Part shown: positions 5,639-29,325 of the stretch, piece by piece
Numbering within the stretch: the stretch's first letter is position 1
Layout: every line of letters begins with the position of its first letter
Assembly: GCA_041946735.1 (NCBI GenBank)
Contig: JBHGAY010000038.1
Span: forward strand, 1-36,220
DNA length: 36,220 bases
Reading direction: 5' to 3'
From: Candidatus Eiseniibacteriota bacterium
Lineage (GTDB): Bacteria; Eisenbacteria; RBG-16-71-46; CAIMUX01; VGJL01
Position numbers and translations under genes: made by a program
Notes under the pieces: generated by a model
Told to the model about the DNA's origin: nothing
The model's database searches: none
Seen by the model: the letters and a program-made list of their open reading frames with translations, nothing else

Positions 5639-5781
5639 GCTTCGGTTTCTTGCTTTCCGGGGGAGAGACGGCCCGAGGTGGGGAAGCTCGACGAGGGCCG
5701 GATGCCGCCCGCCGCGCTGCGCCGCGTCGTCCTCGTCGTATCGCGTCGCGTCGCTTCGCGGGATCCCGGCGGATCCGTGAG

Positions 5782-5861
5782 GCCGTTTCCCTACGCTGGC
5801 ATCACCCAGATCAGGTGCTCGGGGTCTCTTCTCAGTCCCACCTCGGGACACCCCCAACGAC
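5782..5861 (-). ncRNA. TPP riboswitch (THI box)
   Basis: Minus strand reads GTCGTTGGGGGTGTCCC..GGGACTGAGAAGAGACCCCGAGCACCTGATCTGGGTGATGCCAGCGTAGGGAAACGGC, matching the GGGG..CTGAGA..ACCC..ACCTGAT..GCGTAGGGA core. Upstream of thiO. Confidence 0.95.
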
Positions 5862-5871
5862 CGTTGCAGGC

Positions 5872-27110: not shown

Positions 27111-27139
27111 CGGCCGTCTCTCGCTGTGGGAGACGGCCG
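27111..27139 (+). terminator. 12-bp GC hairpin after the beta-helix gene
   Basis: CGGCCGTCTCTC-GCTGT-GGGAGACGGCCG. No U tract. Confidence 0.5.
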
Positions 27140-27182
27140 AGTCCGTTGCGCTTCCCGCCGAGTACCTGTGAATCTGTGTATT

Positions 27183-27272
27183 AGTGCGCGCGGCCCGCTC
27201 CCTACGGATGGAACAGCGAGCCGGCCGTGGTCGGCTTGCTCCCTACGGATGGAACAGCGGGTCGCGCGCACT
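27183..27272 (+). ncRNA. Candidate structured leader RNA: 14-bp closing stem, two identical 22-nt repeats, central hairpin
   Basis: GCTCCCTACGGATGGAACAGCG at 27197-27218 and 27238-27259. AGCCGGCC-GT-GGTCGGCT lies between them. AGTGCGCGCGGCCC (27183-27196) pairs with GGGTCGCGCGCACT (27259-27272). Confidence 0.55.
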
Positions 27273-27282
27273 GGAGGCACGG

Positions 27283-28737
27283 ATGCGAGATGTGTGGGTG
27301 GTCTTGGAGGAGCGCACGCGTGACTGGGATGCGCTCGGGCGCCAGCGACTGGCGAGCGCGATCTGGGAAGACTACGTCTCCATCCGCTTCGGCCGTACGG
27401 CGGATGCCCGGGCGCTCGAGTACCTCTACCCTTACCTGAACAATGCGGACCGCAGCACGCGAGCGCGTGCGCTCGCCGTGGCGGCAAGGGTCTTCGAAGG
27501 GCGCGGCACCCGAGTCATCGAGCATCTCAGGTACTTCGCAAACAACCCCGACCTCTTCCTGCGCGACCGCGCCGTGACCGTCCTCGGCGCGACGGTGACT
27601 GGCTTGCGCGACGACGTGATCCTGGAAGTCTTGTCGCCGTACCTCCGCAATCGGAATCAGTTCATCCGCAAGCTCTCTCTCGTCGCGCTCGGCAAGGCCG
27701 CCGCCGGTCAAGGCTCGGCGCGCGTACTCGCTGAGATCCGGCGCGTCGCCCAGTTGCCCGGACCCCGAGAGGATGAAGTCCGGACCGCCATCGCGAACGC
27801 CTTCGCCGGCCGACCCACCGAAGAGACCTACGCCGAGGTCGCCGGGCCGGCGCCCCTGGAGAGCATCGAGCGAGACAACGCGCTCGCGACCGCCGTGCTG
27901 GTTCGAGGCGCAGGAGAGGAGTGGTACCGCCGCGCCTGCGAGGAAGTGTTCGAGCCCCGGCTGCAAGCGCCAGGCGAGACCGGCTGGAGGCGCGACTTCA
28001 TCCGCCGCAAAGGGATCGAGGCGCTCTGCTATGCCGGCGCGGGAAGAGGGATGGAGCCGCTCCGGCGCATTCTGCCCCTGCGCGGTGATCGGACGACGGG
28101 CCACGCCATTATGTCGGAGGCGCTGCGTTGTTTCGCCGGCGCCGACCCGGTCAACCGCGAGCCGCTGATCGAGTTGGCGAAAGCCGGCGACCTCGTCGCG
28201 CAACGCATTGCCGCAGTCTGCCTCGGGCGGCTCGTGATGGGTCGAGAGGATGAAGAGGCGATCGGGGTGCTCCGCGGAATCTGCGAGGGGGCGAAGAGCA
28301 GCGAGGTCCAAGCGGCCGCGTTGATCGGGCTCGGCATGGCGGCGCGGTCGAGTTGCGACGACGGACTGCGCCGTCTCTGCCTCAGTCGTTTGGCGAACCC
28401 TGAGACCCTGACCGCGGCGCTCCGTGCTCTCGGGATGATCCTCCTCGGCTCCGGGAGGAGGGACGTGTTCGACGCGGTTTGCCGAGCGGCACGGGAACGT
28501 GAGGCCGAACCGGTGCGCAGCCGGCCGCACAGCAAAGCGCTTGCCGCCTGCTACCGCACGATCGGCCTCATCTATCTCGGCACAGGCTCGGATGAGCCGG
28601 TCGGCTTCCTGCTCGACGCGCTGGCGCGGCCGCCGCGGAGCTCGCGGGACGCGTACCAGCGGGCCGCCGCGCGCGCGCTTATCCTGGTTGAGTTCAGCGA
28701 GGCAGCACTGGGTTGGGACTACATCTCTTTCGTATGA
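27283..28737 (+). CDS. All-alpha repeat protein with proteasome/cyclosome (PC)/HEAT-like repeats
   Basis: ATG after GGAGG. Units such as AALRALGMILLGSGRRDVFDAV, YRTIGLIYLGTGSDEPVGFL, LVALGKAAAGQGSARVLAEI, AAVCLGRLVMGREDEEAIGVL. Confidence 0.8.
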   Translation: MRDVWVVLEERTRDWDALGRQRLASAIWEDYVSIRFGRTADARALEYLYPYLNNADRSTRARALAVAARVFEGRGTRVIEHLRYFANNPDLFLRDRAVTVLGATVTGLRDDVILEVLSPYLRNRNQFIRKLSLVALGKAAAGQGSARVLAEIRRVAQLPGPREDEVRTAIANAFAGRPTEETYAEVAGPAPLESIERDNALATAVLVRGAGEEWYRRACEEVFEPRLQAPGETGWRRDFIRRKGIEALCYAGAGRGMEPLRRILPLRGDRTTGHAIMSEALRCFAGADPVNREPLIELAKAGDLVAQRIAAVCLGRLVMGREDEEAIGVLRGICEGAKSSEVQAAALIGLGMAARSSCDDGLRRLCLSRLANPETLTAALRALGMILLGSGRRDVFDAVCRAAREREAEPVRSRPHSKALAACYRTIGLIYLGTGSDEPVGFLLDALARPPRSSRDAYQRAAARALILVEFSEAALGWDYISFV

Positions 28738-28741
28738 GCCG

Positions 28742-29122
28742 ATGGCGAAGTTCAATCCCGACTTCTGGGAGGTGACCATCTCCGCGGAGAGCTGGCGCCG
28801 GTTCTCCACTGAGCATCACCTCTACTACGAGTCACCCGAAGAGGCGAGGGAGCGCCACGCGCGCCTCGTACGGGCGGAAGCAATGCTGCCGCAGCTCCGC
28901 GCTCTCATGAACGAACTCCTCACATCACGGCAGCGCGAGGTCGTGACCCTGTACTTCCTGGCTCGCCTAAACCAGCGCCAGATCGCGGACAAGCTCGGCA
29001 TCACCCAGCAGGTCGTGTGCGAACACCTCTACGGAAAGATGCGGAATGGCCACCTGGTCGGCGGCGCGCTGCGCAAGCTGCGCAAAGCGTGCGCCGAACG
29101 GGGCATCGGGTGGGCAACGTAG
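28742..29122 (+). CDS. Stand-alone sigma-70 region-4-like HTH protein (126 aa)
   Basis: LTSRQREVVTLYFLARLNQRQIADKLGITQQVVCEHL..ALRKLRK. No region 2. Starts 4 bp after the upstream stop. Confidence 0.82.
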   Translation: MAKFNPDFWEVTISAESWRRFSTEHHLYYESPEEARERHARLVRAEAMLPQLRALMNELLTSRQREVVTLYFLARLNQRQIADKLGITQQVVCEHLYGKMRNGHLVGGALRKLRKACAERGIGWAT

Positions 29123-29238: not shown

Positions 29239-29281
29239 GCCGCTGCGTGTGTGAGGTAGAATCCCCGGCACACGCAGCGGC
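29239..29281. repeat. Perfect 13-bp inverted repeat with 17-nt loop
   Basis: GCCGCTGCGTGTG (29239-29251) and CACACGCAGCGGC (29269-29281). Loop contains TAGAAT. Confidence 0.8.
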
Positions 29282-29293
29282 ACCCGGAACGAA

Positions 29294-29325
29294 CGAAGGG
29301 GCCTGCTTCGAAGGGGCCTGCTTCG
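29294..29325. repeat. 15-bp tandem duplication
   Basis: CGAAGGGGCCTGCTT x2 plus CG. Confidence 0.8.

Follow-up and report, generated by a model that had tools for sequence, protein, structure and literature searches.

The leader of the HEAT/PC-repeat gene in the window (the whole stretch of DNA analysed, 36,220 nt) is filled by a two-fold symmetric RNA rod, in which short helices are arranged around a central 2-bp dyad. The rod is a real and undescribed RNA family that heads a compact, patchily distributed unit of three parts, namely a DNA motif, the gene of the HEAT/PC solenoid protein, and the gene of a protein with sigma-70 region 4 only (sigma-4 protein). The reading preferred here, with a probability of roughly 0.4, is that the rod is bound by a dimer of the solenoid protein, which would thereby dampen its own translation; the circuit would be turned on by the sigma-4 protein. 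The features of the unit in the window are as follows.

27161-27181, plus strand: promoter/operator-like motif, consensus RAAGTRCCTGTG-N4-YGNGTA, with its core in 27/27 leaders and no indels
27183-27199, plus strand: 5' arm of the rod, outer stem of 17 bp, to which the GCU of repeat 1 contributes, with two-sided changes in 13/17 pairs
27200-27214, plus strand: core strand 1, from the RNAalifold consensus
27215-27240, plus strand: inner stem (11 bp) with a c(YGNG)g tetraloop at its tip (27226-27229), and with two-sided changes in 9/11 pairs
27241-27255, plus strand: core strand 2, of the same sequence as strand 1
27256-27272, plus strand: 3' arm of the rod, outer stem
27273-27277, plus strand: Shine-Dalgarno sequence GGAGG for the HEAT/PC gene, not part of the rod, from the sequence and the homologous spacers
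27283-28737, plus strand: HEAT/PC-repeat all-helical solenoid protein of 484 amino acids, unnamed family (Pfam HEAT_2, PC_rep)
28742-29122, plus strand: sigma-70 region-4-only protein of 126 amino acids (Pfam Sigma70_r4 only), starting 4 nt after the HEAT/PC gene

The 14-bp closing stem (27183-27196 and 27259-27272, containing one G-U pair), the 8-bp inner hairpin (27218-27237, two G-U pairs and a CGUG loop) and the GGAGG that had been described in a sequence-only reading of this DNA were all confirmed, and the ATG of the HEAT/PC gene follows at 27283. The two repeats of that reading are indeed identical, but their length is 21 nt (27197-27217 and 27238-27258) instead of 22 nt, as the 22nd base, a G, forms part of a stem on each side. 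The repeat was present twice in the window against 0 expected, two matches occurred in 0/100 shuffles, and the folding z of the element region was -5.75. No further copy with up to two mismatches was found in the 4.89-Mb genome, which bears out the view that the repeat does not belong to a dispersed family; REP-like repeats occur in many copies per genome, whereas the covariance model of the element found one strong site per genome in 6/6 genomes with the module. The Rfam 15 scan proposed together with the element gave no match there at the gathering threshold, and only a TPP riboswitch was found elsewhere in the window (5771-5865, minus strand, 70.8 bits). None of the five sub-threshold matches obtained in the window at E up to 10 was meaningful for the element, and nine homologous loci gave 0 matches to Rfam families.

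Several other structures were seen in the window. A G+C-rich inverted repeat without a T-run lies between the upstream gene and the motif (27111-27139), and its conservation was not seen in the homologous leaders. Downstream of the sigma-4 gene are a hairpin (about 29240-29282) and a tandem duplication of about 15 nt (29295-29325), neither of which is conserved in other loci. Three tandem 43-nt units, 100, 88 and 70% alike, occupy positions 1-129 at the contig end.

Homologous loci were collected by alignment-based scans, as a single-protein query of genome contigs returned nothing. The scans found 7 genome and 34 metagenome loci, of which the named ones belong to Planctomycetota, Armatimonadota and Latescibacterota. 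Fourteen of the 41 loci had no gene start and were dropped, and both the hairpin and the upstream motif were present in 27/27 of the remaining leaders. After removal of 4 duplicates and of the single-repeat leader of locus L007, and with the window included, 23 sequences were aligned. Covariation was found among them, and a covariance model was made, as the sequence-only reading had suggested. The rod measures 80-96 nt across the homologues (about 85 nt).

The element had been interpreted as a four-way junction, an interpretation that the homologues overturned. Because the repeat starts with GCU and ends with AGC, a single sequence cannot separate a junction from a rod. Where the repeat flanks differ among the 23 sequences, repeat 1 stays complementary to repeat 2, so that the rod was favoured by 9 sequences and the junction by 0, with 14 ties. 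The six pairs that define the junction were broken in 22/138 cells of the 23 distinct homologues, against 6/138 cells for the rod, and the folding energy was -61.4 kcal/mol for the rod versus -48.7 kcal/mol for the best forced junction. The covariation analysis took all 4203 column pairs as a control in which relatedness is preserved; the eight highest-scoring pairs were all rod pairs and included two of the deciding ones (0.88 and 0.49), while the junction pairs scored between -0.13 and 0.09.

In the consensus fold, the 15x15 core forms a CC:GG helix, a central 2-bp helix and a GG:CC helix, joined by 1x3 and 2x3 loops. In the window, CC at 27201-27202 pairs with GG at 27251-27252, CG at 27205-27206 with CG at 27246-27247, which is the dyad centre, and GG at 27210-27211 with CC at 27242-27243. 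The central pairs scored 0.38 and 0.25 (99th percentile of the null, 0.12) and occur in the compensated forms CG/CG, CA/UG and GG/CC, being broken in 3 rows; the two-fold symmetry noticed in the single sequence is thus backed by covariation, in the form of a rod core with a central dyad. The CC...GG bases are kept in 46/46 repeats and predicted to be paired, and because they are invariant, covariation is silent on them for pairing within and between the repeats alike. Function as a plus-strand RNA, which had been proposed from the G-U pairs in both stems, is supported by 46 G-U cells versus 9 A-C cells in the alignment. Together with the c(YGNG)g loop, whose YGNG pattern is in register in 21/23 rows, this excess identifies a plus-strand RNA with a true dyad. 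The four outermost columns of the outer stem were unpaired in 4-10 of the 23 sequences, and these poorly kept pairs probably lie upstream of the transcript start. Likenesses to the 11-nt tetraloop receptor, to guanidine-II loops and to the hairpin ribozyme were dropped because the bases that they need vary.

The protein encoded directly behind the rod has 82 homologues and consists of HEAT/PC repeats over its whole length, with PC_rep above the Pfam cut-off. Its predicted structure (pLDDT 93.1) is all-helical, and its charge (K+R versus D+E of 26/18, 23/24 and 22/21) shows no strong bias. The best solved folds were Rpn2 and Rpn1 of the 26S proteasome, with which it shares the PC-repeat solenoid (TM about 0.42-0.49, 13-16% identity; Z 16.2, rmsd 6.6 and 352 aligned residues for the best fold). 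In contrast to these proteins, it is bacterial and half the size, its TM scores stay below 0.5, and there are no proteasome genes among the neighbours scanned; such moderate similarity of helical repeats is no proof of a common function. PADLOC gave weak partial matches only, to repeat or HTH parts, and no meaningful family.

The RNA follows the solenoid gene. In Latescibacterota, the RNA model matched 5/151 genomes, each time directly 5' of a HEAT match, and at least two of these five had been training sequences; HEAT homologues were found in 6/168 and sigma-4 homologues in 66/168 genomes of this phylum. Among 30 sigma-4 loci and 16 wider regions, significant matches to the rod model occurred only at the two beside a HEAT gene, and no rod was found at the examined loci of paralogous sigma-4 genes without HEAT. 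Every intact HEAT gene whose leader could be seen was preceded by a rod, and the single-repeat leader of L007 precedes an internally deleted HEAT gene with an intact sigma-4 gene behind it. Two loci, L138 and L150, encode a divergent HEAT protein (26-28% identity, probability 99.95) in a rearranged unit that runs motif, sigma-4, second motif, rod, HEAT. In their rods, the two halves have changed jointly while the helix pattern is retained, and the fold z values were -5.2 and -5.5. The rod of L150 was spotted by eye, not by the covariance model. As chance matches reach 28-33 bits, the score of L138 (34 bits) is not decisive alone, and its assignment rests on position, the fold z of -5.2 and the helix pattern. 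Within the window's phylum, weak matches in 3 of 150 other genomes (28-33 bits) and one elsewhere in the window's genome (25 bits) were attributed to chance, since they have no dyad and no HEAT or sigma-4 gene nearby; those in the other genomes also look coding. The link between the RNA and the solenoid gene is therefore strict and persists even when the gene order changes. This agrees with the idea in the sequence-only reading that the RNA has a downstream protein as its partner, and when the preferred reading is combined with its main rival, it is probable that this partner is the solenoid protein.

In the predicted structure of the sigma-4 protein (pLDDT 93.5), a long helix is combined with an HTH and a short beta-hairpin. 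Its nearest folds were sigma region-4 domains, none at E < 0.001. Sigma region 2 was not detected in its 126 amino acids and all NCBIfam sigma models stayed below the cut-off, unlike an ECF sigma factor with its regions 2 and 4. The protein has 186 close homologues and a wider family of 210 representatives at E up to 1e-10. The sigma-4 gene stands behind the HEAT gene in 31/41 loci. In eight of the ten loci without it, the sequence stops inside or just past the HEAT gene, and another is a truncated module. The last, L010, combines the motif, the rod and an intact HEAT gene but gave no sigma-4 match within 1.1 kb downstream.

The AT-rich, promoter-like tract that had been noticed upstream of the element corresponds to the conserved motif, which has a fixed spacing and many invariant columns. 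It is not a sigma-70 consensus, however; the scan of the window for sigma-70 promoters and terminators returned 0 sigma-70 sites and called no terminator. The copy in the window is among the weaker ones (37.1 bits; range, 32.7-51.2). The GTA of the motif lies 3-14 nt before the stem in 18/23 leaders and 37-55 nt before it in 5, and the distance is as expected of a promoter that starts near the stem base.

Motif variants with a different middle were found upstream of paralogous sigma-4 genes in 12/16 wider regions, as would be seen for an ECF-type cognate motif upstream of its own gene, and the rearranged loci L138 and L150 contain two motif copies each. With a loose pattern of the family, 8 matches were obtained in 5 genomes, of which 6 adjoin a sigma-4 gene, against 4 matches in the control, and a tighter pattern for one Latescibacterota branch gave 13 matches versus 1. 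Of these 13, seven flank the sigma-4 gene; the remaining six are at other places, every one of them ahead of an ORF on the sense strand. When seven ORFs behind the tighter-pattern motif were scanned, four belonged to clear families (GNAT, ABC-2 permease, HlyD adaptor and isochorismatase), two had other matches and one had none. The motif of the HEAT branch is single-copy in the window's genome and in 5/5 module genomes, where no outside regulon rose above the control. The motif thus tracks the sigma-4 family and not HEAT/PC. It is likely to be the cognate site of this family, and we infer from these sequence comparisons that the sigma-4 protein binds it and activates rather than represses.

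Further arrangements were observed around sigma-4 genes. The paralogues of Latescibacterota loci L058-L087, L140-L152 and L163-L175 have a motif of the form AAAAGTGC-N10-GNGT with a branch-specific middle and, among the matches listed, short upstream ORFs and terminator-like hairpins with T-runs. Together with the further motif copies in front of GNAT, ABC-2, HlyD and isochorismatase genes, these paralogues are a candidate WhiB7-like stress regulon. In L058-L062 and L066, about 60-350 nt upstream of sigma-4, the leader of a third branch carries two GCCGCTAATAACGG hairpin-like units behind the motif, possibly another structured RNA. A distant sigma-4 branch in the Planctomycetota loci L137 and L139 stands just before an ORF that by eye resembles a serine recombinase, with neither motif nor rod, and at L088:268-1446 (G065) an insertion resembling a transposase by eye separates a sigma-4 paralogue from its motif.

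The unit is sporadic among uncultured bacteria. A HEAT homologue was found in 1/61 relatives of the window's genome and sigma-4 in 1/206 genomes of its phylum, and full-length sigma-4 proteins occurred in 5/401 and 1/251 genomes of two other phyla. This patchy distribution points to horizontal spread or repeated loss. The flanking genes vary between the loci and are ordinary metabolic ones; 41 of 79 neighbouring ORFs were scanned and were metabolic, regulatory or without a Pfam match, with no integrase or defence family among them. Neither the sigma-4 and HEAT proteins nor the repeat pattern had a relative in viral contigs, and none was found in plasmids. Decayed modules with deletion, frameshifts or truncation in HEAT or sigma-4 were seen in Latescibacterota at L007:5933-6500, L006:6001-7927, L005:7531-7600, L008:6001-6165 and L161:1501-1950.

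In the preferred reading, the sigma-4 protein would bind the upstream motif and activate transcription, with +1 at or just within the 5' arm, and the rod would fold at once at the transcript's 5' end. A solenoid dimer may then read the two equal half-sites of the rod, and the complex, lying some 20 nt ahead of the start codon, would hinder 30S loading and set the protein level. The feedback is suggested by the gene link, by the joint change of both rod halves with the protein, by the spacing from the stem end to the ATG (15-23 nt in 18/23 sequences), and by the lack of a general terminator, as a T-run of at least 4 follows the stem in 6/23. The solenoid, alone or with the RNA, would be the output of the module, since no second copy of the sigma-4 motif exists in these genomes. 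The direct abutment of the 3' arm on the ribosome-binding site, pointed out in the sequence-only reading, holds for the window copy and is particular to it. Steric blocking is weakened by the position of the Shine-Dalgarno sequence outside the rod and by spacers of 28-84 nt in 4/23 sequences. Counting further against this reading, the closest folds of the solenoid (Rpn1/Rpn2 and importins) are known as protein scaffolds, gene co-occurrence fits equally a cis element read by something else, L010 has no sigma-4 match, and the motif copy of the window is among the weaker ones.

The main rival, a possible though tentative explanation, is that partial termination or trimming releases the rod as a stable small RNA, which would bind the HEAT/PC protein in trans and either keep it inactive or form a working RNP with it, as in the cases of AbiF or type III antitoxin RNAs or of Ro60-Y RNA. 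The rod is self-contained from the predicted +1 and has no alternative fold, and its gene linkage is the same as for the feedback reading, including the pairing of a single-repeat rod with the internally deleted HEAT gene of L007. The T fraction of 0.28 after the stem versus 0.19 upstream also agrees with release, and the AbiF study (PMC12373285) provides a precedent of a two-motif RNA upstream of a homodimeric partner. Against this rival, a terminator-like T-run occurs in 6/23 leaders with none called in the window, the HEAT/PC protein does not have an RNase fold, PADLOC gave no meaningful family, and the neighbours are ordinary metabolic genes.

A riboswitch-like aptamer that tunes HEAT/PC translation when its symmetric core binds two identical small ligands or ions, or a single symmetric ligand, is an unlikely explanation. 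It would fit the two-fold symmetry and a 5' leader in which conserved internal-loop bases separate short helices; however, the minimum-energy folds of 24 leaders have no conserved alternative pairing with the Shine-Dalgarno sequence, and there is no conserved terminator. The element is confined to one gene family with a single copy per genome, its loop bases drift, both halves change in the divergent subfamily, and no Rfam family matches.

Still less probable is that the rod mimics a promoter, like a miniature 6S RNA, and shuts the promoter of the module by acting as a decoy for either the sigma-4 protein or RNA polymerase. The central region is loosely paired, the rod would be made from the sigma-4-linked motif, and the sigma-4 gene is in the unit in 31/41 loci. 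Nevertheless, about 60 Latescibacterota genomes have sigma-4 paralogues without HEAT, at whose examined loci the rod was not found, the rod goes with HEAT in the rearranged loci, and most of the core is paired in the predicted fold, with no open bubble. 6S RNA is a long rod with an open central bubble, present as one copy in most bacteria; the element, in contrast, measures 80-96 nt, has a partly paired core and no Rfam match, and was found in 5/151 genomes.

It is very improbable that a four-way junction offers two GGA loops to a CsrA dimer that controls translation. The CsrA/RsmA sites proposed in the sequence-only reading are present in the window copy as ACGGAUG and AUGGA, with two ACGGAU hexamers within the closing stem, and csrA was found in 4/6 module genomes, the window's included, the two without it possibly being incomplete. 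CsrA/RsmA targets and TwoAYGGAY RNAs have GGA in terminal hairpin loops with a conserved ANGGA(NG). Here, the hexamers are not in terminal loops and are not conserved, the GG is predicted to be paired, and no Rfam match was obtained at E up to 10. ANGGANG occurs in 21/46 and ANGGA in 35/46 repeats, ANGGA is absent from the divergent subfamily (L138 and L150), csrA was not found in the possibly incomplete genomes of these two loci, and covariation and energy both disfavour the junction. In the least probable reading, the sigma-4 HTH protein would use the repeats as DNA operator half-sites, 41 bp or about four turns from each other, and the hairpin would be incidental. This reading gains from a repeat spacing of 40-43 nt in 23/23 sequences and from the HTH protein in the unit, but is opposed by the compensatory changes in both stems, the G-U bias of 46:9, the conserved tetraloop, and the lack of repeats at the paralogous sigma-4 loci examined.

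Among known systems, the module would work most like the AbiF/type III toxin-antitoxin pairs or the autogenous leaders, and is a member of neither. With the former it shares a short two-motif RNA that lies ahead of, and would be co-transcribed with, its one protein gene, and a two-fold arrangement that suits a homodimer; a repeated RNA motif directly upstream of its cognate gene was found in 27/27 leaders, one distinct leader being single-repeat. According to the AbiF study (PMC12373285), each motif of the AbiF RNA (RCd22; Rfam RF03085) forms its own hairpin, a terminator stands between the RNA and the gene, and the protein is of a toxic nuclease type. In the present module, the repeats pair mutually, a T-run is found in 6/23 leaders with no intrinsic terminator kept between RNA and gene, and a HEAT/PC solenoid and a sigma-4 gene take the place of a HEPN or ToxN-type nuclease, the former having HEAT/PC repeats and an all-helical model. 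The autogenous leaders of ribosomal-protein operons such as rplJL (see PMC4538822), which are bound by their own gene product, likewise have a structured 5' leader of one gene family near the start codon. The rod differs from them in having no evident rRNA mimicry, no housekeeping operon, a sporadic occurrence and a dyad-symmetric core.

WhiB7 is an Fe-S WhiB protein, whereas the present regulator has a sigma region-4 fold. The HEAT subfamily differs further from the WhiB7/WblC circuit in that its leader is a rod and no outside target was found. That circuit (PMC7157823) resembles the sigma-4 family in its logic, with a small regulator and a promoter that in the sigma-4 family is predicted to be self-activated; the Latescibacterota paralogues also have a short upstream ORF and hairpin, as well as motif copies in front of GNAT, ABC-2 permease and HlyD genes. 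The lack of membership in any compared system follows from the mutual pairing of the repeats and from the lack of a conserved terminator, a nuclease fold and sigma region 2. No description of the RNA, the protein or the module was found in the largely open-access literature searched, and motif catalogues in supplements may hold an unnamed entry.

In summary, an RNA family backed by covariation has been found, and a candidate partner can be named for it; one 90-nt RNA and one soluble protein suffice for a binding test. The putative RNA-protein pair is compact, symmetric and absent from model bacteria, and could serve as an orthogonal translational switch. If the solenoid binds RNA, a eukaryotic proteasome-cap fold serves as a specific RNA binder in bacteria. 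The cognate DNA motif for a widespread sigma-region-4-only family makes promoter activation by such a protein testable. A bolder and rather doubtful proposal is that the Rpn1/Rpn2-like solenoid and the dyad-symmetric RNA form a new RNP as the sole output of a sigma-region-4-only stress switch, of which other branches would drive resistance-type genes behind leader-peptide attenuators. If this is true, a single portable module would bring together an RNP of a new class and a minimal transcription activator of a new kind.
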